40,154 nucleotides of DNA from Candidatus Pacearchaeota archaeon (GCA_050124795.1 JASFEO010000011.1:1-40154), one strand, 5' to 3'; positions 9,663-20,475 are shown, numbered from the stretch's first letter. Notes: generated by a model not told the origin, from the letters alone. Program-made: numbers and translations.

Positions 9663-10376
9663 ATGAATCTCAAAAAAGAGGTTATTAATTCGCAAAAAGA
9701 TTTGAAAATAATTTTTATCACTAATGATTCAATTAATGTTAAGGCGAAATTCGGACCATCTAAGGAAACTTATCTCCCATTGCAACTTGATGAGAGATTA
9801 GCATTCTTGATTGGTGCGATAATCGGAGATGGCCATTTGAAAAGGAGTAAGTATCAAATTAGTATTGAGATATCGAATAAGAAAATTCTTGAGAATATAA
9901 AGAAGATTTGTTTTGAATTATTCAACAGGGAGTTTAATATTTTACTTGTTAAAAAACGAGAAGGGAAAGCTCAATCTTACCACATTTGTATTGATAGCAA
10001 GGCAATTTATAATTTATTAAATAAAGTTTATGAGATTCCAATTGGTAAAAAAAGCCATATTGTAAGAGTCCCAAGATATGTTTTCGATTCAAATCTTTCT
10101 ATCAAATCTGCATTTCTAATCGGGATAATGGTCACAGACGGGGGCAAGAGAAGAGGGATTATTGGAATTTCAACTGCGAGTAAAGAACTAAGAAAAGGAT
10201 TAATTTTTTTGCTTGAAGGAATAGGCATCAAATTGTTTAAGGATGAATGGGTTAATAAAAAGTATAGCAAAAAATATTATGGAATAACTTTTAAACCTAA
10301 ATATCTTAAGAGCCTCATGCGGAGATGCCGGAGCGGTCAAACGGGCCAGATTTTATTAGACAAATTTGTTGTTTGA
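9663..10376 (+). CDS. Double-motif LAGLIDADG homing-endonuclease-like protein
   Basis: Motifs LAFLIGAIIGDGHL and SAFLIGIMVTDGG. Start uncertain (9591 TTG, 9600 or 9663 ATG). The 3' end overlaps tRNA-Leu. Confidence 0.85.
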   Translation: MNLKKEVINSQKDLKIIFITNDSINVKAKFGPSKETYLPLQLDERLAFLIGAIIGDGHLKRSKYQISIEISNKKILENIKKICFELFNREFNILLVKKREGKAQSYHICIDSKAIYNLLNKVYEIPIGKKSHIVRVPRYVFDSNLSIKSAFLIGIMVTDGGKRRGIIGISTASKELRKGLIFLLEGIGIKLFKDEWVNKKYSKKYYGITFKPKYLKSLMRRCRSGQTGQILLDKFVV

Positions 10377-10440
10377 TAAGAGGCTAAGCTTAGGACCTGG
10401 TAGCTTAGTGCTTACTTAGGTTCGAATCCTAATCTCCGCA
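10319..10440 (+). tRNA. tRNA-Leu(TAG) with 38-nt intron at non-canonical position 30/31 (10350-10387)
   Basis: Acceptor GCGGAGA/TCTCCGC-A, T arm TTAGG-TTCGAAT-CCTAA, long variable arm. BHB-like motif GGCC/GGCT with bulges AG^A and AA^G; splicing gives the anticodon arm CCAGG-CT-TAG-GA-CCTGG. Confidence 0.9.
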
Positions 10441-10540
10441 TATTTAATTTTGATGAGAACCTGGTTCGATGAGTGGTCTCGTGGTAGAAGCATAATCCCA
10501 GTTGCTTCGTGCGGGTGCAGGAACAGTTCTAGTCTCCGCA
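10441..10540. repeat. tRNA-3'-associated structured mini-element, copy 1
   Basis: Core CGTGGTAGAAGCA(10480-92)...TGCTTCGTGCG(10503-13) shared with 15287-15324; ends in TTCTAGTCTCCGCA, resembling the tRNA-Leu end TCCTAATCTCCGCA. Confidence 0.6.
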
Positions 10541-10581
10541 TTATATAAATTATATTTTGTGTATAAAAACTTTTAGAATTA

Positions 10582-11514
10582 TTAATTATTTTTCTTTCTA
10601 TTCTCTGCTTCTTTTTGTTTTATTTTTTCTTCTAAGTTAAGTCTTTCAATTAATTCTTTGTATCTGTTCCTGATTGTGACTTCTGTTATTCCTGCAATAT
10701 CTGCAACTTCTCTTTGTGTTTTTTTCTCATCATTAATTAGCGCAGCGACGTAAAGCGCAGCAGCTGCAATTCCTGCCGGTCCTCGTCCGGAAGTTAATTC
10801 AGCGTCGTCAGCATCTTTAAGAACTTTTAATGCGTCGTTTTGAGTTTTAGGTGAGAGTTTTAATACTGAAGAGAAACGAGAGACATAATCTTTGGGTGAG
10901 GATTGTTTTATTTTTATCCCTCCAAGTTTTCTGATTATAAATCTGTAAGTTCTTCCAATTTCTTTACGTTCCACGTCAGAGGCAGTCGCCATTTCATCTA
11001 AGGTTCTTGGGATATTGTATGAACGGCATGCGGCATATAAACAAGATGCGATTACTGATTCCATGCTTCGACCTCGAACTAAACCTCTTTGCAAAACATA
11101 ATTATAAATTCTGGATGCTTCATCACGAACAACATTTGGCAAGTTTAAATATGAAGCAATAACTCTTAATTCTGCCATTGCCAATCTTAAATTTCTTTCA
11201 ATAGAAGTTGAAACTCGCTCCTGCCATTTTTTTAATCTAAGAAATTTTCTTGTTTGCCCCGGGTCAAGTTTATAGATATCTGAAATTTCTCCGACATTTG
11301 TAGTTAAACCTTTGTCGAATTTTTGCATTGAAATTGGTGCGCCGCCCCTTCCTTTTTTGTCATTTTTGTCAAACTTTCCAGATAAGTCAATCCCTGTATC
11401 AACCATTTTTTCTTCAACGACAAGTCCGCAGTCATTGCAAATTACTTCTCCTAAATGAGGGTCGTAAGTTAAATTAATACTTCCGCATTCTGAACATTTT
11501 TTTACAAAAGCCAT
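10582..11514 (-). CDS. tfb: Transcription initiation factor IIB
   Basis: N-terminal Zn ribbon CSEC...CNDC, two cyclin repeats (GRSMES, GRGPAG), C-terminal TQREVA...TEVTIRNRYKEL HTH. Confidence 0.97.
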   Translation of the reverse strand: MAFVKKCSECGSINLTYDPHLGEVICNDCGLVVEEKMVDTGIDLSGKFDKNDKKGRGGAPISMQKFDKGLTTNVGEISDIYKLDPGQTRKFLRLKKWQERVSTSIERNLRLAMAELRVIASYLNLPNVVRDEASRIYNYVLQRGLVRGRSMESVIASCLYAACRSYNIPRTLDEMATASDVERKEIGRTYRFIIRKLGGIKIKQSSPKDYVSRFSSVLKLSPKTQNDALKVLKDADDAELTSGRGPAGIAAAALYVAALINDEKKTQREVADIAGITEVTIRNRYKELIERLNLEEKIKQKEAENRKKNN

Positions 11515-11621
11515 TTTTAGATTAGTTTTGATTTTTGGGAATCGTAAGGTTTATAAATGAATTGAAGAAATTTTGTTTTATAAATGTTTTGTTTTTTATG
11601 ATTATTAGAAAATGGTAAAAA

Positions 11622-11879
11622 TCATTCGGTTAAACTTTCTTTGGGAACAACAATCGTATTGCTTTCTTTGAATTCTCCGCCCCGGGGTTTTATTAACACA
11701 CTTTTTTCATCACTCCCCAACAAATAAATTTCTAAACCTTTTCCGGGCACAATTAGGTTTTTATGAAAAAATCCACTCACAGCATTCCCTTCATATGGTT
11801 TTACTGTAACAGTCCTTTCATTTGGGAACATCCCATCTTCTACTTTAATGTTTTTTAGATAACCAATTTTATAATCCAT
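11622..11879 (-). CDS. Hypothetical protein (85 aa, beta-rich)
   Basis: Clean ORF with TTTAAA upstream; no recognisable motif. Confidence 0.65.
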   Translation of the reverse strand: MDYKIGYLKNIKVEDGMFPNERTVTVKPYEGNAVSGFFHKNLIVPGKGLEIYLLGSDEKSVLIKPRGGEFKESNTIVVPKESLTE

Positions 11880-11929
11880 ATTAATTCTTATTAAAAATAC
11901 TTTTTAAATATTTATATTTTAGAAAATAT

Positions 11930-12298
11930 TTACTCAATCAAAATACCGTTGACAACGCCTTCCTGGCCTGGGCGGTTTGTTACTTTGACTTTTCCAAGTT
12001 CTGTTTCAATTATTGTTCCTTTTGTGATTATGTTTTGTCGTGCTAAGAATTTATCTGAAGGTGTTTCAAGAACATTTTTTATTTCAACTTTTTTCTTTTT
12101 GTCTTTTACTTTTACATTAACAAATTTTGCTCTGAGTAACACCGGCTTTGTTTTGCCGCCTCTTCCTCTTTTTATTTTTCTTTTATCTTCATCAGCTTTT
12201 TTAACAGTTCGTTTTTGTCCTATTCCTTCGTAGGATTTTTTCTTTCTTGCTTTAGTATATTTTCCGCCTGAAATTTTTCTTCCTTTTCTGGTTGCCAT
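11930..12298 (-). CDS. rps8e: 30S ribosomal protein S8e
   Basis: GRKISGG, RGRGG, RQNIITKGTIIETELG...VTNRPGQEGVVNGIL; true start MATRK at 12298. Confidence 0.95.
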   Translation of the reverse strand: MATRKGRKISGGKYTKARKKKSYEGIGQKRTVKKADEDKRKIKRGRGGKTKPVLLRAKFVNVKVKDKKKKVEIKNVLETPSDKFLARQNIITKGTIIETELGKVKVTNRPGQEGVVNGILIE

Positions 12299-12404
12299 AA
12301 AATAAATGAAAGATTTTAGTTTAAATAGTTTTTTGTTTAGGGAAAATTCACGCAATGTAAATTTTTTAAGAAAAGTTTAAAAACAAGATTTTGCAAATCA
12401 GATT

Positions 12405-12656
12405 ATGGCAAATGGAATTGAAAGACCTCTTGACCTTTTGAACAACTCGAAGGGAAAAGAAGTTCTTGTGCATTTGAAAGGCGATAAGCAGTTCGTCGGG
12501 ACATTGCTTGCATTTGATATCCATATCAATTTGGTATTGGATAACACAAAAGAAATGCAGGACAATGAGATAAAAAGAAATTTGGGTTTGAGTTTTCTTC
12601 GAGGAGACACAATTATTTTTATTTCTCCAGCATCAACTGCTTTGAAAAAAGAGTAA
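12405..12656 (+). CDS. Sm-like archaeal protein (LSm/SmAP)
   Basis: RPLDLL...V.LK....GTL.AFD.H.NLVL...LRGD Sm1/Sm2 motifs. Confidence 0.95.
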   Translation: MANGIERPLDLLNNSKGKEVLVHLKGDKQFVGTLLAFDIHINLVLDNTKEMQDNEIKRNLGLSFLRGDTIIFISPASTALKKE

Positions 12657-12782
12657 TTGCGTTACCTTGAATTAATTTCGCTAAAGGTTATTACGGATTC
12701 TCAGGATTAGTTGATTGTAGTTGGTACTAAATATATTTTGCATTGTAATTAATTTTATAAATAGTTAATTGATTGAATCTTT

Positions 12783-13004
12783 ATGGTTGAATATAAAAAA
12801 TTAGTTTTTGAATTTTCTCCTGAGGCTGTAACTAGATTAGATGAGATTGTAATGGATTTGGCTAAAAAAAATAGAGCAGAACTTGTTAGAGATTCAATAA
12901 GATTTATGGAATATGCTTATAAAATGGTTCATGAGGGATATAGCCTAGAATTTCATAAAGAAGGAGAAGAACAGGTAGTAATTTCTCCTTTGGAAAAAAT
13001 CTAA
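12783..13004 (+). CDS. Ribbon-helix-helix (CopG-like) DNA-binding protein
   Basis: KKLVFEFSPEAVTRLDEI...NRAELVRDSI pattern. Confidence 0.75.
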   Translation: MVEYKKLVFEFSPEAVTRLDEIVMDLAKKNRAELVRDSIRFMEYAYKMVHEGYSLEFHKEGEEQVVISPLEKI

Positions 13005-13052
13005 TTAATTTCTTACTAAGTTTTAATCTGGTTAACTTTCCAAACAATCTTC

Positions 13053-13916
13053 TCAATAAATTTCAGTCTCTTCAATCACTTTCTTCTTTTTCTTTTTTAT
13101 TTTTTCTGCTTCATCTAAAAAATTTTCTTCACTAATAATGCTCTCCCCTGTTTTTTCTTCAAGTTCCCGTCGTGCATTTCCTGCAACTTCTCCTCCCTGA
13201 ATGGCAGCAATTTGGTTTTCATTAAATCCTTTTGCGTCTTTTGTTTTTGCAATCTTTGTTGTTGAGGCTTCACCTAACATTGTAAAAATTAATTCCAAGT
13301 CATCCATATGGTCTCTTAAATTTTCATTTTTTAGTTTTTTGAATTCCTTGTATTCTGAAACTGTTTTTCCAAATGCTGCCTTACTGATTTCATTTGTTAG
13401 AATTGCAGATTCAACATCTTCTTTTACACCTCTGGTTTTCCATTCATCTGTTAGTTCCTGCCTTATTGCAATCCCTCTTAATCTTTTTTCAATCCAATCT
13501 TTTGAATAACCTTTTTTTTCATAAAGTTCTTTCATTCGCTCTTGCGCAAGTTCAGGGTTTTCAATTTCTTTAATTCTTTCATAACCAACTTTCGCAAGCC
13601 ATCTTTTGAATAGTTCTGCTTTTTTCGAGGGAATTGACTGAATAATCCTGAAAATTCCTTCAGTGTCAGCAATATCTGTGTCTCTTAATTTTTCGTCTTC
13701 TGCTAAAAGTTTCAACTGTCCGATGAAAGCGGACACTTCAAAACCTTCCTCAATTAGTTTTTGCTTTAAATCAGACCAGTATTTTCTCGGTCTTGGGCTC
13801 TCTGTTAGGGCACTAACAATATCAACTACAGAAAAAAACCATTTTTCATTAACAAATTTTCTTCTTATTATTTTTCCATTAAAAATTGCTATGTGAGTTT
13901 CTTCTGAAGATTCCAT
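13053..13916 (-). CDS. Bro-N domain / phage antirepressor-like protein
   Basis: IRR...WFFSVVDIV.AL...PRKYWSDLK, RIIQSIPSKKAE.FKRWLA, ELTDEW, NLRDHM..LELIF.MLGE. Confidence 0.85.
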   Translation of the reverse strand: MESSEETHIAIFNGKIIRRKFVNEKWFFSVVDIVSALTESPRPRKYWSDLKQKLIEEGFEVSAFIGQLKLLAEDEKLRDTDIADTEGIFRIIQSIPSKKAELFKRWLAKVGYERIKEIENPELAQERMKELYEKKGYSKDWIEKRLRGIAIRQELTDEWKTRGVKEDVESAILTNEISKAAFGKTVSEYKEFKKLKNENLRDHMDDLELIFTMLGEASTTKIAKTKDAKGFNENQIAAIQGGEVAGNARRELEEKTGESIISEENFLDEAEKIKKKKKKVIEETEIY

Positions 13917-14028
13917 TATAATTAATAAGATTGCATTTACTTAAATAATTTATTAGTTATCTGAAAAGAGTAATTTGATAAAATAACTCTTCCAAATGAT
14001 TTTTAAGTACTAATGCACTTATGTTTTT

Positions 14029-14934
14029 ATGACAGAAAAAATAAAAATAACTTTTTTAGGAACTAGTGCGCAAATTCCGACTCGACAGAGAAATCATACT
14101 GCGATTTTATTAAGTTATAAAGAAGAAAATATTTTAATTGATTGTGGTGAAGGAACGCAGAGGCAGTTTAGAATTGCAAAGTTGAATCCTTGCAAAGTTA
14201 CGAGAATATTAATTACTCATCGTCATGGAGATCATGTTTTTGGTTTGCCAGGACTTATCTCAACTTTTGAACATTCAGGATATAATAAAGCTCTTTATAT
14301 TTATGGACCTCGCGGAATAAAAAAGTTTTTAGAACATTTTCTAGCTTTGAAATTTACAAAGAGAAATTTTGAAATAAAGATTGAAGAAGTTCCTAGTGGC
14401 AAGTTTTTTGAAAATGAAGAATTTGTTTTATCGAGTGAATCGATGGAACACGGAATTCCAACTAATGCCTACAGTTTTACGATAAAAGAAAAATTAAGAA
14501 TTGATAAAAAGAAATTGGAAAAAGCGAAATTGCCGTCGGGGCCTATTTTAAAGAATTTGAAAGAAGGAAAGGACATAACTTTTGGAGGAAAGAAATACAA
14601 GGCAAAGGATTTTTTGTTCTCTGAAAGTGGAAAGAAGATTTCTTTTGTTCTTGATACAATGGATAATAAAAAAATTGTTTCATTTGTTAAGAATTCTGAT
14701 TTATTAATTAGTGAAGCGAGTTTTTCAGATGACTTGAAAGATTTAGCAAAAGAGCATTTACACCTTACGGCGAAACAAGCTGGGGAAATAGCAAAAAAGT
14801 CAAAATCAAAAAACTTGATTTTAACTCATGTTTCTCAGCGTTATGAAAAAGATTTGAAAGGGTTGTTGGAAGAAGCAAAGAAAGAATTTAAGGAAACAAA
14901 GATTGCGCGGGATTTTGATGAAGTTGTTCTGTAA
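14029..14934 (+). CDS. rnz: Ribonuclease Z
   Basis: FLGTSA..PT..RN, DCGEGTQ, THRHGDH, GP exosite, HLT, LTHVSQRY. Confidence 0.97.
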   Translation: MTEKIKITFLGTSAQIPTRQRNHTAILLSYKEENILIDCGEGTQRQFRIAKLNPCKVTRILITHRHGDHVFGLPGLISTFEHSGYNKALYIYGPRGIKKFLEHFLALKFTKRNFEIKIEEVPSGKFFENEEFVLSSESMEHGIPTNAYSFTIKEKLRIDKKKLEKAKLPSGPILKNLKEGKDITFGGKKYKAKDFLFSESGKKISFVLDTMDNKKIVSFVKNSDLLISEASFSDDLKDLAKEHLHLTAKQAGEIAKKSKSKNLILTHVSQRYEKDLKGLLEEAKKEFKETKIARDFDEVVL

Positions 14935-14976
14935 AAATAGAAACCTTTTAAATCTCTAATTATTCTTTTAATTTAT

Positions 14977-15098
14977 GGCTCGGTAGCTCAGCCTGGATAG
15001 AGCGACTGCCTTCTATTCGAAGCGAAGGTTTTGTCTTCGGACTTAACTAGCGCCAAGGAGTCAGCAGTAGGTCGCAGGTTCGAATCCTGTCCGGGCCA
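14977..15098 (+). tRNA. tRNA-Arg(TCT) with 47-nt canonical 37/38 intron (15016-15062)
   Basis: GGCTCGG/CCGGGCC-A acceptor; anticodon stem ACTGC/GCAGT; CTTC/GGAG central helix with bulges TA^T and TC^A. Confidence 0.9.
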
Positions 15099-15139
15099 TA
15101 TGAATAATTTTAAATACATCATTTTTTTGTTTTAATAAT

Positions 15140-15212
15140 GCGGGGGTGGCACAGCGGCTACTGCAATCGGTTGCAGCCCGGTTTTTCGCGGGTTCGAGTC
15201 CCGTCCTCCGCT
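15140..15212 (+). tRNA. tRNA-Cys(GCA)
   Basis: GCGGGGG/CCTCCGC-U73; ATCGG-TT-GCA-GC-CCGGT; GCGGG-TTCGAGT-CCCGT. Confidence 0.92.
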
Positions 15213-15347
15213 TTTTATAGAATTGGAAATTCTATAGTGGGCTTGCTAAACTCAGGAACGATTTTTCTTTTGAGTCCGAGCAATTACGTGGTAGAAACAA
15301 TGGCCTCACAAAATGTTTCGTGCGTGATTGGGAGTATGCCCTCTGCT
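15213..15347. repeat. tRNA-3'-associated structured mini-element, copy 2
   Basis: Core CGTGGTAGAAACA(15287-99)...TGTTTCGTGCG(15314-24); ends GAGTATGCCCTCTGCT, resembling the tRNA-Cys end GAGTCCCGTCCTCCGCT; extra hairpin TATAGAATT-GGA-AATTCTATA at 15216-15236. Confidence 0.6.
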
Positions 15348-15403
15348 TCATGCTGTCGTAGAAAAACAATAATCTTTTTATAGGGTGAATTATAGTTTGT
15401 AAA

Positions 15404-16861
15404 ATGGAAAAGAAAAAATTTTCAATTGAAGAACTTGCGAAATTCTGCAAGCAAAAAGGATTTGTATTCAGGAGTTCTGATATTTACGGAGGATATGCAG
15501 GGTTTTGGGATTTTGGTCCTTTGGGGGTAGAATTGTTTTCTAATATCCGGCGAGCATGGTGGGATTATTTTGTTCATAAAAGAGAGAACATGGTTGGAAT
15601 GGAAGCGAGCATTATTTCTCATCCAAAAACATGGAAAGCTTCAGGGCATATTACTGGTTTTAAGGATTTAGCAGTTGTCTGCAAGAATTGCAAGAAGTCA
15701 ACTAAGCTAGAAGTTAATGAATTTGGAAAAGTTAAATGTGATTGTGGGGGGGAATATGAGAAGACCGGGGAGTTTAACCTTTTGTTTAAGACAAATGTTG
15801 GTGCGCTTGACAAGAGTGATGCATATTTACGAGGAGAAACTGCACAAGGAATGTTTATGGATTTTAAATTAATCCAACAAACATCGCGAATGAAACTTCC
15901 TTTTGGAATTGCGCAAATTGGGAGATGTTTCAGAAATGAAATTTCTCCGAGGGATTTTTTCTTTAGAAGCAGAGAATTTCATATTGGGGAGTTTGAATTT
16001 TTTATTCATCCTGAAGAAATGAAATGTGAAATTCTTACTGATAAACAATTGGATGTAAAAGTAAAACTTCTTGATGCAGAAACTCAGGAAAAGAAAAAAG
16101 AAACATTGAGAGATACTACAATAGGGGAGATGTTAAAAGAAAAAAGATTTGAAGAATGGCATGCTTATTGGCTTGCTGAACAGGTTTTGTGGTTTAAGAG
16201 TTTAGGTTTAGAAGAAATAAAAATTCGTGAACACATGGATACTGAGAGAAGTTTTTATTCTTCTGCAACTTTTGATATTGATTACGAATATCCTTTTGGT
16301 TCTCAGGAAGTTGCAGGTAATGCTAATCGTGGGCAATATGATTTAACTCAGCATGAAAAGGAGAGTAAGGTTAAAATGGAAATGTTCGATGACAAGACTA
16401 AAAAAAATGTAAAGCCCAAAGTTATTGAGCCGACGTTTGGAATGGAAAGAGTTTTTTTAGCGATTTTAACAAAGGCATATAATTATGATGAGAAAAGGGG
16501 GAATATTGTTTTGAAGGTTCCTGCAAGACTTGCACCAGTTAAGGCTGCGATTTTTCCATTAGTAAAAGGTGAAGAGTATGAAAAAATTTCTCGAGAATTA
16601 ATTGAAACAATTGGAAGTGAATTTAATGTCTCATTCGATAAATCAGGTTCAATTGGCCGGCGTTATGCCCGCAATGATGAAATCGGAACGCCCTATTGCA
16701 TAACTATCGACGGAGATTCAATAAGAAATAAAGATGTTACAATTCGCGATCGCGATACAACAAAACAAATTCGTGTTAAAATAAATGAATTAAAAGAAAC
16801 TTTAAGAAAATTAATTAATAGTGAAATAAGTTTTGCTGATGCGGGAAAAACAATCAACTAA
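15404..16861 (+). CDS. glyS: Glycine--tRNA ligase (alpha2, archaeal/eukaryote type)
   Basis: IYGG..GFWDFGPLG, WKASGH, LRGETAQG, FRNEISPR, VIEPTFG.ER, GSIGRRYAR.DEIGTP. Confidence 0.97.
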   Translation: MEKKKFSIEELAKFCKQKGFVFRSSDIYGGYAGFWDFGPLGVELFSNIRRAWWDYFVHKRENMVGMEASIISHPKTWKASGHITGFKDLAVVCKNCKKSTKLEVNEFGKVKCDCGGEYEKTGEFNLLFKTNVGALDKSDAYLRGETAQGMFMDFKLIQQTSRMKLPFGIAQIGRCFRNEISPRDFFFRSREFHIGEFEFFIHPEEMKCEILTDKQLDVKVKLLDAETQEKKKETLRDTTIGEMLKEKRFEEWHAYWLAEQVLWFKSLGLEEIKIREHMDTERSFYSSATFDIDYEYPFGSQEVAGNANRGQYDLTQHEKESKVKMEMFDDKTKKNVKPKVIEPTFGMERVFLAILTKAYNYDEKRGNIVLKVPARLAPVKAAIFPLVKGEEYEKISRELIETIGSEFNVSFDKSGSIGRRYARNDEIGTPYCITIDGDSIRNKDVTIRDRDTTKQIRVKINELKETLRKLINSEISFADAGKTIN

Positions 16862-19956: not shown

Positions 19957-20475
19957 TTATGGCTTTACCCATTTAACTTCATAGTAAGTTATGTCGCCTT
20001 CTTCATCAACTATTGCTAAGAGAAGATTCTTTTTTGTTGAATGAGCAACTCTGTTTTTGGAAGAAAATTCATGCCAGGTTAATTGTTTTGATTCATGATC
20101 TGTGAAAATAATCCATTTTGCATGTTTTTGTCCGGGTCTTGCGCCTTTGTCGTAGACTCTGAATTCTGCTCCGAATTTTAAAGCGGTTTTTACAACATAA
20201 CCGCGTTCTCTTAAATCTTTGAATACCGGATATTTGATTTGAATTTTTTTATCAATTCTCTTGAACTTTTTTAAGAGTTCTTCAAATGACAAAATTTTTT
20301 TTCTTGATAAAATTTCCATTTTATTTTTACTGACTAAAAATAAAGTTTCTGAAAGCGAGTATTGAATTTTTTCTCCTTTTCTTTCTCCGAATGCTGATTT
20401 TTTATTAAGTGCATGCGCTTCACTAGAATTACTTGAAACAATTTCTCCTGTTAAATAAGATTTTATTTTTTCCAT
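19957..20475 (-). CDS. endA: tRNA-intron endonuclease (short, homotetramer-sized)
   Basis: DLRERGYVVKTALKFGAEFRVY (Tyr), KHA (His), RVAHSTKK (Lys), AIVDEEGDITYY. Confidence 0.95.
   Translation of the reverse strand: MEKIKSYLTGEIVSSNSSEAHALNKKSAFGERKGEKIQYSLSETLFLVSKNKMEILSRKKILSFEELLKKFKRIDKKIQIKYPVFKDLRERGYVVKTALKFGAEFRVYDKGARPGQKHAKWIIFTDHESKQLTWHEFSSKNRVAHSTKKNLLLAIVDEEGDITYYEVKWVKP

Follow-up and report, generated by a model that had tools for sequence, protein, structure and literature searches.

Two tRNA genes in a 40,154-nt stretch of a Candidatus Pacearchaeota archaeon genome (GCA_050124795.1, JASFEO010000011.1:1-40154; hereafter the window) are each followed by a short tail with a similar hairpin and a degenerate copy of the tRNA 3' end. 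What are these tails, and how did they come to lie there? The sequence-only reading of the window regarded them as tiny non-autonomous elements that target tRNAs by an att-like duplication, or else as a structured trailer RNA able to swap acceptor stems. We find that the two elements are true copies of a family of hairpin-shaped, intron-like inserts in a group of tiny archaea. The two loci contain the following features.

10319-10440, + strand: intact tRNA-Leu(UAG) gene with an intron, host of element 1 (from the sequence; ARAGORN -i finds a tRNA at 10318-10441)
10441-10470, + strand: left part of element 1 (short type), consisting of a spacer, GATGAGAA and the generic T-arm-like stretch CCTGGTTCGAT
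10471-10523, + strand: core hairpin of element 1, GAG-P1-TGGTA-P2/loop-GTG-P1'-GGAA (model R1, 59 bits, E 3e-13; both window cores are in the R1 seed, and their R1 scores are not independent)
10527-10540, + strand: degenerate direct repeat of the T-stem 3' strand, acceptor 3' strand and discriminator of tRNA-Leu (12 of 14 nt identical to 10427-10440)
15140-15212, + strand: intact tRNA-Cys(GCA) gene, host of element 2 (ARAGORN; RF00005, 49.1 bits)
15216-15236, + strand: perfect palindromic hairpin of element 2 (long type), TATAGAAT-tggaa-ATTCTATA, directly behind the tRNA
15237-15271, + strand: 5' segment of element 2 (GTGGGC) and the conserved module TTGCTAAACTCAGGAACGATTTTTCTTTT, which has its own hairpin
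15272-15277, + strand: copy of the tRNA-Cys T-loop/T-stem junction (GAGTCC) in element 2; the 16 nt before the core match their own tRNA best of 35, with no ties
15278-15334, + strand: core hairpin of element 2 (model R1, 68.3 bits, E 6.6e-16, likewise from a seed member)
15340-15348, + strand: degenerate direct repeat of the acceptor 3' strand, discriminator and next base of tRNA-Cys (8 of 9 nt identical to 15205-15213, a match that counts in the family context only)

With introns allowed, ARAGORN miscalls the gene at 10319-10440 as tRNA-Pro, and RF00005 misses it at the gathering score. We assigned it to Leu by eye, by comparison with tRNA-Leu(UAA) and tRNA-Leu(CAA).

The core consists of GAG, an 8-bp stem (P1), UGGUA, a stem with a variable loop (P2), GUG, the returning strand P1' and GGAG. 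The module is 53-83 nt long and has fixed ends, GAG ... GGAG plus 1-4 nt. Its internal loop, UGGUA opposite GUG, is invariant, which suggests a specific partner. Both window copies (10471-10523 and 15278-15334) follow this layout and close with GGA(A/G). The covarying hairpin is shared as the sequence-only reading described it: a compensatory change from G-C to A-T separates the P2 stems of the two copies, GAAGCA/TGCTTC and GAAACA/TGTTTC, and the outer stems differ yet pair, P1 being CAATTACG/CGTGATTG in the Cys copy (8 of 8 positions paired) and TGGTCTCG/CGGGTGCA in the Leu copy (6 of 8). Two-sided changes were found in 8 of the 14 P1/P2 pairs among 13 copies of the same genome and in 12 of the 14 among 82 distinct copies from relatives, values reached by none of 500 shuffles. 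P1 is an inverted repeat, but one that covaries and is not fixed in sequence.

That reading had not recognised the motif as a known RNA family, and Rfam bears this out. The whole window gave three tRNAs and nothing else at the gathering score, and the two element regions, searched at E up to 10, gave chance-level rows alone (E >= 2.6). Judged by eye against consensus features, the core was rejected as a kink-turn, a C/D-box RNA and an integron attC-like site; a BHB within it and a hammerhead-like ribozyme in the short type were rejected on the same basis.

A covariance model scan, the check that had been set for the family, found 17 copies of the core in the 1.06 Mb genome of this DPANN archaeon. 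Thirteen are located behind intact tRNA genes and one is the intron of tRNA-Gln(CUG); of the remaining three, two fall within a reverse-transcriptase gene and the third is intergenic. The similarity exceeds chance: the exact 10-mer CGTGGTAGAA recurs at 14 sites of the genome. Of 150 other genera in the family, 28 have the core, with copy-number bursts of 25 and 32 copies among the relatives, and none of 40 genomes from neighbouring families has it. With a loose pattern scan, 2 of 80 loci among the matches listed for genome contigs passed the model, against 0 of 80 among those listed for viral contigs, where two stricter patterns gave no matches at all. Comparing two DNA contig sets with the stretch gave only short cross-matches (other organisms and other copies of the core), and neither a bridging contig nor an empty-site joint. 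A search for RNA runs that cover 10250-15450 found none.

All 13 tRNA-tail copies are co-oriented with their host gene, as are both reverse-transcriptase copies, the copy in an MGMT gene and both RpoP copies. At orthologous tRNA-Cys loci the units are sporadic, being absent at most and differing in type where present. Tandem arrays and truncated or diverged units occur, and another hairpin family forms core-less units of identical layout. Since there are further copies, the stems covary, most copies are found at tRNAs and Rfam has no match, none of the outcomes that would have refuted the sequence-only reading was seen. The proposed tiny non-autonomous, tRNA-targeting family is borne out as far as its 17 copies, 13 of them behind tRNAs, are concerned, but the hairpin also occurs in protein genes and intergenic repeats and is thus not tRNA-specific.

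In each of the 13 tRNA tails, the core lies inside a degenerate second copy of the stretch from the T-loop to the 3' end of its own tRNA. The part before the core carries tRNA-specific T-stem/T-loop letters, and the part after it is the 3' end of the tRNA; for 10 of the 13 units, the top match of this latter flank among 35 tRNAs is the tRNA directly upstream. Units differ in where the core is inserted, between about tRNA positions 53 and 64. That each element ends in a copy of its own tRNA's 3' end, as had been claimed, is therefore correct for both window elements, but the duplicated piece is the T-loop plus the 3' end, with the hairpin inside it. In element 1, TTCTAGTCTCCGCA (10527-10540) differs from the tRNA-Leu sequence TCCTAATCTCCGCA at two positions, both of which keep pairing, and the flank ranks its own tRNA 1 of 35. 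In element 2, CCTCTGCTT (15340-15348) agrees with the tRNA-Cys sequence CCTCCGCTT at all but one position; the flank ranks its own tRNA only 5 of 35, so that this 9-mer is not significant by itself. The further claim that most changes keep the pairing applies to the two window copies (6 of 7 changes) but not to the family, where 11 changes keep and 10 break it, as counted in the nine units aligned in register; the other four of the 13 (Pro, Glu, Asp and Ile) were misaligned by the ungapped method and left out. The T-loops of the second copies are broken. We also considered the tails as real, highly disrupted tRNA genes and rejected this, as they have no D arm or anticodon arm.

The inserts are 100-180 nt long and geneless; the elements themselves, at 100-136 nt, carry no ORF of their own. 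In short-type units, such as element 1, repeats of 16-23 nt flank the core and begin at T-loop position 59, and the left repeat part is generic rather than tRNA-specific. This left part, GAGAACC..GGTTCGAY, also precedes the core behind tRNA-Arg(TCG) and tRNA-Gly(TCC) of the same genome, and it recurs behind tRNA-Cys of genome G014 and tRNA-Gly of genome G102. The loop CATAATCCCAGT of element 1 is common to the tRNA-Arg(TCG) copy. The repeat of the Arg unit is 22-23 nt long and extends 6 nt beyond the end of the tRNA.

Long-type units have extra modules in a fixed order: palindrome, 5' segment, module. Modules related to TTGCTAAACTCAGGAACGATTTTTCTTTT are found at the equivalent place in the Leu(UAA), Pro, Ser(GCU), Glu, Asp, Ala and Ile units. 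In the predicted MFE fold of element 2, GGGC would pair with GCCC of the 3' part; only the Lys and Ser(UGA) units clearly have a closing helix of the 5' segment with the distal 3' copy. Hairpins that pair perfectly and are unique in sequence start 1-6 nt behind 8 of the 13 unit-bearing tRNAs, compared with 4 of the 22 other tRNAs. These four are Lys(CTT), which has a truncated unit, Asp(intron), which has module-like sequence alone, and tRNA-His and tRNA-Phe, behind which no unit remnant was seen. Transcription may end at the perfect hairpin that separates the tRNA from the long-type tail and has T-rich sequence behind it.

The setting that ties the core to introns is tRNA-Gln(CUG). Both in this genome (G000) and in G026 the core is the anticodon-loop intron of this tRNA, which ARAGORN and RF00005 find only if it is allowed an intron of 63 nt, made up of the core and 4 further nt. 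Only here does removal restore the product, as expected of a BHB intron; the window copies follow complete tRNAs. By eye, GGAG of the intron can pair with C32-U35 of the anticodon loop. The candidate BHB drawn in this way has a CUCU/GGAG helix and a canonical 3' bulge; for a 3-nt bulge on the 5' side, CGA of CGAG must pair with the end of P1'. We could not draw a BHB motif by eye for the T-loop, MGMT or HerA contexts. One EndA gene (a 176-aa open frame) is found in the window at 19984-20238.

In relatives, the core is also found at two protein genes. In the MGMT gene of one relative (G038), exactly 60 nt, the core plus TT, lie in frame between an Ala and a Ser codon and without any duplication, and 11 of 11 MGMT homologues are uninterrupted through GGFASG. 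In five genera, a HerA-like ATPase gene has an intact end, followed by a spacer, TGGCATGG, C, the core, T and a repeat of its last 13 codons. Removal of the core and 2 nt restores the frame of this second copy, and the stop codon is kept. Between second and first ends there are 19 synonymous and 4 non-synonymous codon differences, and 20 of the 26 changed bases are at third positions. Within one genome, the proximal approximately 27 nt of the two copies are identical.

We did not find an integrase, a Cas1 or a Y1 transposase linked to the core. Tyrosine recombinases (PF00589) are encoded in five of five core-rich and five of five core-less genomes and thus do not track it. The genome, which is 90% complete, has no PF01867 match to Cas1, as a casposon would need. 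Matches to PF01797 were found in G000, in G118 and, as fragments, in G111, and none in the core-rich G102 or in G026 and G149. The two Y1 transposases of the genome belong to IS200-type elements with end hairpins unlike the core (IS200 at C26). Nor do reverse-transcriptase homologues track the core: 3 of the 9 core-bearing genera have them, as do 16 of the 51 others. The features of a MITE or DNA transposon are missing: P1 covaries, the MGMT insertion has no duplication, and repeats elsewhere range from 9 to about 45 nt. Of the marks of an integrative element, the direct repeat of the tRNA 3' part is present, and an associated integrase with one target per family is not.

We suggest, with about an even chance of being right, that the elements are copies of a lineage-specific, selfish, intron-like mobile module, and that the tails are core-interrupted remnants of gene ends beside a restored intact gene. 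In brief, the module can sit as a simple, exact insertion without target duplication, as in the tRNA-Gln intron and MGMT. If it inserted towards the 3' end of an essential gene (the T-loop/T-stem of a tRNA, or the last 13-14 codons of the HerA-like gene), a compound locus would survive, with an intact gene, a short spacer and a gene-end remnant still bearing the hairpin at an intron-like position. Such loci might arise by recombination or repair between hairpin-interrupted and uninterrupted gene ends, as a rescue or a homing that was aborted, either within a polyploid cell or with a related strain as the DNA donor. The resulting direct repeats would permit tandem expansion and loss. The module may have spread from an intron to the dispersed copies or in the reverse direction, and the window tails would be non-functional. 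It should be noted that no hairpin allele was seen as the sole copy in a T-loop or a HerA-like gene among the loci read, and the interrupted partner is therefore hypothetical. A repair accident does not account for the fixed module order of the long type, and plain decaying remnants should not differ mainly at synonymous positions, as the HerA-like ends do.

In the att-type alternative, a miniature non-autonomous integrative element, a small circle with the hairpin and a copy of the gene 3' end, would recombine with the chromosomal 3' end by means of a trans-acting enzyme or of host recombination. The intact gene would then contain attL, attR would lie distally, and the hairpin would be a recognition arm by the crossover. 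An insert bounded by direct repeats of the gene 3' end agrees with this, and tRNA 3' ends are a classical integration site. The Arg repeat running past the tRNA end and the tandem arrays also agree, as do the HerA-like ends, which look by their synonymous differences as if each were in service and whose identical proximal stretch resembles an identity segment. However, an element-borne repeat would have to be re-made at every move, given near-identical cores behind at least 13 tRNAs, and the hairpin is not beside the second copy but within it, with T-loop letters to its left. The insertions in MGMT and tRNA-Gln are repeat-free, the tyrosine recombinases are as common in core-less as in core-rich genomes, and the viral contigs hold no true core among the matches listed. 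We consider an att/integrase mechanism unlikely, because at least 13 different tRNAs are involved and no integrase was found. Transposition of a hairpin cassette, by cut-and-paste or copy-in, is quite improbable. Here the short type (GAGAACC..GGTTCGAY plus core) would be the cassette, and the 16-22 bp from the tRNA T-loop to its end would be duplicated as the target site, in line with the short-type repeats that start at position 59 and the generic left part. It is contradicted by long-type units and the HerA-like gene, where the hairpin lies inside the second repeat, by the MGMT insertion, and by the enzymes: no Cas1, Y1 transposases of IS200 type only, and none of these in core-rich G102.

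If the tails have a function, they could be alternative 3' exons or structured 3' trailers. Their RNA would fold with or against the tRNA, so that the acceptor strand is swapped, or be spliced to the tRNA body, and it would serve processing or quality control or act as a tag resembling a tRNA. The tails do adjoin their gene in the same orientation in all cases, the internal loop is invariant, changes in the two window copies mostly keep pairing, and the HerA-like second copies retain frame and stop codon. Yet units are missing from most orthologous tRNA-Cys loci and vary in type, the core occurs in only 28 of the 150 genera, the second T-loops are broken, pairing is lost about as often as it is kept across the family, and the T-loop, MGMT and HerA contexts offer no BHB to the eye; transcription may also end before the long-type tail. 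The trailer that swaps acceptor stems, suggested from the window alone, thus found no support, and we regard any such role as very unlikely. A bolder version of the mobile intron-like module sees the loci as working footprints of active archaeal intron mobility. The hairpin intron would enter transcripts or genes at loop-like sites, the internal loop would be the handle of a dedicated enzyme, and interrupted and restored gene ends would both be in service. Splicing or recombination between the repeats would now and then bring the distal 3' ends into use, in tRNAs the acceptor strand and in the ATPase the last 13 codons. We think this improbable; if true, archaeal tRNA-type introns could be traced here, for the first time, through each step of being gained, spreading and being lost.

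The mobile module that we favour would give a rare view of how intron-like inserts move. How archaeal tRNA introns arrive is still open, according to a 2026 preprint. Here one sequence family has four settings: a tRNA intron that is probably working, protein genes into which it is exactly inserted, dispersed repeats, and what appear to be leftover gene ends. With its lineage-specific bursts and many intermediate states, it offers concrete loci at which the gain, rescue and loss of introns can be tested, and this in genomes that measure just 0.5-1.4 Mb. In annotation, the tails could be taken for fragments of tRNAs or for genes of small RNAs, and the core inside the reverse-transcriptase gene alters how the "truncation" of that gene is read.

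Bacterial hairpin repeats of the REP/REPIN type are moved by Y1 (RAYT) transposases. Like these, the hairpins described here are short and numerous, are strand-specific, have stems that covary and lie at the borders of genes. Unlike them, the core does not track Y1 transposases, which here are IS200-type with other end hairpins, and it also occurs as an intron and in frame within genes. The loci resemble the partial tRNA duplications (attL/attR) that integrase-borne elements leave, and also the tRNA-disruption model of Sugahara et al. (2012, PMC3293823), in having an intact tRNA followed by a displaced 3' part at recombination-prone loci. They differ in that the insert is 100-180 nt and geneless, is found at no fewer than 13 tRNAs, has no linked recombinase and has a second copy interrupted by a hairpin. 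Also close to our case are the transposed tRNA introns of Thermoproteales, near-identical in many tRNA genes and moved by a mechanism called unknown (Fujishima et al. 2010, as cited in the review PMC4090602). As in that account, an intron-like sequence is found at many tRNA genes of one lineage, and one copy here is a true anticodon-loop intron. In contrast to the introns of that account, most copies here are in gene-end remnants, protein genes or intergenic regions rather than introns of working genes, splicing is putative, and the hairpin has its own conserved fold with an invariant internal loop.

The tails behind tRNA-Leu(UAG) and tRNA-Cys(GCA) had been proposed, in a sequence-only reading, to share a hairpin motif, and both stretches match that description. 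The two core hairpins are at these positions:

Window 10471-10523: core hairpin of the tRNA-Leu element
Window 15278-15334: core hairpin of the tRNA-Cys element

In brief, the core reads 5' to 3' GAG, then stem P1 (8 bp), UGGUA, stem P2 closed by a loop that varies, GUG, the strand P1' and GGAG; UGGUA and GUG are invariant, and GGAG is replaced by GGAA in the Leu copy. The compensatory change from G-C to A-T reported for P2 is present between the two window cores. The degenerate duplicates of the tRNA ends are likewise present, with 12 of 14 letters matching behind tRNA-Leu and 8 of 9 behind tRNA-Cys. Neither element matched Rfam, at gathering scores or, with the two regions alone, at E values up to 10.

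The window is contig C11 of an archaeal genome (G000) that has 1.06 Mb on 38 contigs and 32% G+C and contains the exact 10-mer CGTGGTAGAA at 14 sites. In an alignment of 13 core copies, paired cells amount to 92% and both sides have changed in 8 of 14 pairs; 0 of 500 shuffles attained these values, and slid controls were much lower. A covariance model, R1, was built from this alignment and gave further copies in this genome and in its relatives. The relatives' alignment (89 matches aligned to the model, 82 of them distinct) has both sides changed in 12 of 14 pairs and 98.6% of P1 cells paired, values that are biased towards the model because the alignment was fitted to it. A U·G pair predominates at one P1 position, and the core fold is thus assigned to this strand, as RNA or single-stranded DNA.

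R1 detected 17 core copies in the genome. In a first draw, 9 of 60 other genera from the family to which G000 belongs had the core; in a larger draw 28 of 150 had it at E 1e-5 or better, with copy numbers highest in G111 (32) and G102 (25). None of 40 genomes from eight neighbouring families gave a match. Completeness of the scanned genomes is 60-95%, so that a core not found in a genome is not necessarily absent from it.

Thirteen of the 17 copies lie on the same strand, 26-175 nt behind an intact tRNA gene: Leu-UAA, Lys-UUU, Pro, Ser-GCU, Glu-CUC, Arg-UCG, Ser-UGA, Gly-UCC, the Leu and Cys genes of the window, Asp, Ala and Ile. One copy is the 63-nt intron in the anticodon loop of tRNA-Gln(CUG), the two copies of a DGR-type reverse-transcriptase gene contain one each, and one is intergenic on contig C23. 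Model matches thus follow tRNAs (13 of 17) or occupy a tRNA intron (1 of 17), the pattern sought for the family. The tRNA genes with 200 nt added make up about 1% of the genome, yet 14 of 17 copies are found there, a concentration far beyond chance. In addition, R1 missed the units of tRNA-Val(UAC), tRNA-Arg(CCU) and tRNA-Lys(CUU), in which the core is diverged or truncated. In the relatives, the core is found behind many tRNAs, inside one MGMT gene and in lineage-specific intergenic composite repeats; in G026 it is again the intron of tRNA-Gln(CUG). In an RpoP-like gene of two genera (L037 in G043, L139 in G102) the core starts right after the last sense codons and provides the final codon and the stop.

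The letters before the core duplicate the T-stem or T-loop of the upstream tRNA (for example Glu ACCCGAG.TTCGAATC; Ser GCGCAGG; Lys TCGAGGGT; Cys GAGTCC), and those after it duplicate the remaining T-arm and the acceptor 3' strand. The core therefore interrupts a degenerate second copy of the last third of the tRNA, at a point that varies from about position 53 to 64. For the distal flank, the unit's own tRNA was the best match among 35 in 10 of 13 units, the exceptions being Pro (rank 3), Cys (rank 5) and Asp (rank 10). The units, each a core with its flanking tRNA-end copy, are of two types:

Window 10441-10540: short-type unit, with a generic left part GAGAACC..GGTTCGAY; also behind Arg and Gly
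Window 15213-15348: long-type unit; nine others in the genome

Short-type repeats are 16-23 nt long, with their start at position 59 of the T-loop; that of the Arg unit extends 6 nt beyond the tRNA. The long type opens with a perfectly palindromic hairpin whose sequence is unique; next come a short segment like the tRNA 5' acceptor strand and then a conserved module (TTGCTAAACTCAAGAA...). Palindromes stand behind 8 of 13 unit-bearing tRNAs, as against 4 of 22 others. These four include Lys-CUU with its truncated unit and Asp (intron) with a module-like sequence; behind the other two, His and Phe, no unit remnant was seen. In most relatives a unit is lacking from the orthologous tRNA-Cys locus. 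The unit of G014 is of short type and has another interior. In G016 (L055) the locus bears three units in tandem that belong to a different hairpin family and share the layout, each consisting of a T-arm copy, a hairpin and a copy of the tRNA-Cys 3' end, the most distal being the most decayed.

A separate observation concerns the tRNA gene upstream of the short-type unit in the window:

Window 10319-10440: tRNA-Leu(UAG), with an intron of about 38 nt seemingly within the anticodon stem (about 30/31) and not at 37/38; missed by RF00005 at the gathering score and labelled Pro by ARAGORN

The cleanest junctions of the core are those in protein genes. The MGMT motif GGFASG is uninterrupted in 11 of 11 homologues compared; in G038 the Ala codon of the motif is separated from the Ser codon by exactly 60 nt (the core plus TT), an in-frame insert that contains no stop codon and has duplicated no target sequence. 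The reverse-transcriptase insertions are in the following genes (L088 and L089; relatives L091-L101):

G000 contig C2, 797-1668: DGR-type reverse-transcriptase gene
G000 contig C2, 37792-38685: DGR-type reverse-transcriptase gene

Here a core with a (CT)n loop interrupts the (GA)n tract within a surface loop; the frame stays open through one copy, and the other is disrupted by two extra (CT)n letters. In the DGR-type reverse-transcriptase genes of the family, the loop upstream of the KGMPLGNLTSQ motif contains a tract of either (GA)n or (G)n. The upstream part is in a different frame at that tract in 6 of 10 homologues compared, and the tract may thus be a slipped-strand on/off switch.

The third protein context is a 440-aa HerA/DUF87-like ATPase:

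L402-L406 (G168, G146, G124, G158, G106): ATPase loci with extra gene ends

In these five genera the gene ends normally and is followed, after 14-75 nt, by TGGCATGG, C, the core, T and a repeat of the final 13 codons. The second copy keeps the frame and stops at the same codon, and G106 has two rounds of extra gene end. Taking away the core and one more letter on each side restores the frame, a rule that MGMT also obeys. At its end the spacer carries the beginning of the repeated piece in inverted form. First and second copies differ by 19 synonymous (stop to stop counted) and 4 non-synonymous codon changes, and third positions account for 20 of the 26 changed bases. Approximately the first 27 nt are identical within each genome and different between genera.

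The simplest account of all these contexts is a selfish, intron-like insertion module. We suggest that core copies persist where they are harmless. Such sites would include those where the splicing enzyme can excise the core, as in tRNA-Gln, where by eye the terminal GGAG is able to pair with C32-U35, followed by a canonical 3' bulge; the tRNA-Glu(CUC) intron has the same ending. Tolerated in-frame inserts (MGMT, the reverse-transcriptase loop, the extreme end of RpoP), intergenic sites and redundant remnants of gene ends would be others. The tails are then most simply seen as interrupted versions of a gene end beside the restored intact gene, not as small integrated elements. Their origin may lie in recombination or repair synthesis involving one interrupted and one uninterrupted version; for instance, a break just downstream of the gene might be patched from an interrupted allele. 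Such patching would explain why a short stretch upstream of the core is copied, why the junction is palindromic and why the sequences are identical near the core. It would also explain the distal synonymous differences, provided that the allele was derived from a related strain. Direct repeats so formed would promote arrays and loss. An allele with the core as sole copy in the T-loop or the ATPase gene was not found in the loci examined, and the proposed mechanism does not account for the fixed order of long-type modules and the invariant internal loop. The splicing enzyme gene is in the window:

Window 19984-20238 (minus strand): EndA, the only tRNA splicing endonuclease gene detected in the genome, with a 176-aa open frame of alpha4 size; separated by about 4.6 kb from the tRNA-Cys element

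The sequence-only reading had proposed tiny, tRNA-targeting, att-like elements or a structured tRNA-trailer RNA. A family of tRNA-tail elements does exist, but with copies in protein genes and intergenic DNA it is not tRNA-specific, and it is probably not of att type. A mini integrative element would accommodate the direct repeats and the arrays; we regard it as unlikely in view of the 13 or more targets within a single genome, the position of the core inside the second copy and the existence of repeat-free insertions. Nor was an integrase link found when five core-rich and five core-less genomes were compared, or a viral carrier of the core among the matches listed for viral contigs, where stricter patterns were also without match. 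Somewhat less credible is a transposon with long target duplications, which accommodates the short type and that type only: Cas1 gave no match in the genome, which is 90% complete, and Y1 transposases, whose presence is uncorrelated with the core, are part of IS200 elements with other ends.

G000 contig C26, 1630-1992: IS200-type Y1 transposase gene between its own GC-rich end hairpins, unrelated to the core

Most doubtful to us is a functional trailer or alternative 3' exon. It agrees with the pattern of codon differences between the ATPase gene ends and with the earlier claim that changes mostly keep pairing, which holds for the two window copies (6 of 7 changes) but fails family-wide, where pairing is kept in 11 changes and broken in 10 across the nine units aligned in register; the distribution is moreover sporadic and T-loops are broken.

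Mobile intron-like hairpins and tRNA-end scars are of a known kind, and the core family is a variant of these. A search of openly accessible articles, supplements excepted, listed no report of hairpin families associated with duplicated tRNA tails among DPANN archaea. The value of the core family is that the intron state, exact insertions, remnants and arrays are all visible within one family. The closest published parallel is the transposition of tRNA introns on a large scale reported for Thermoproteales, the mechanism of which a review terms unknown (PMC4090602). The next closest is the tRNA-disruption model derived from a recombinase-bearing insertion in Caldiarchaeum (PMC3293823). For Asgard archaea, a 2026 preprint describes the route of intron arrival as still open. 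DPANN lineages with alpha4-type endonucleases bearing an extra loop are reported to have more disrupted tRNA genes (PMC5829648), and the window has one alpha4-sized EndA.
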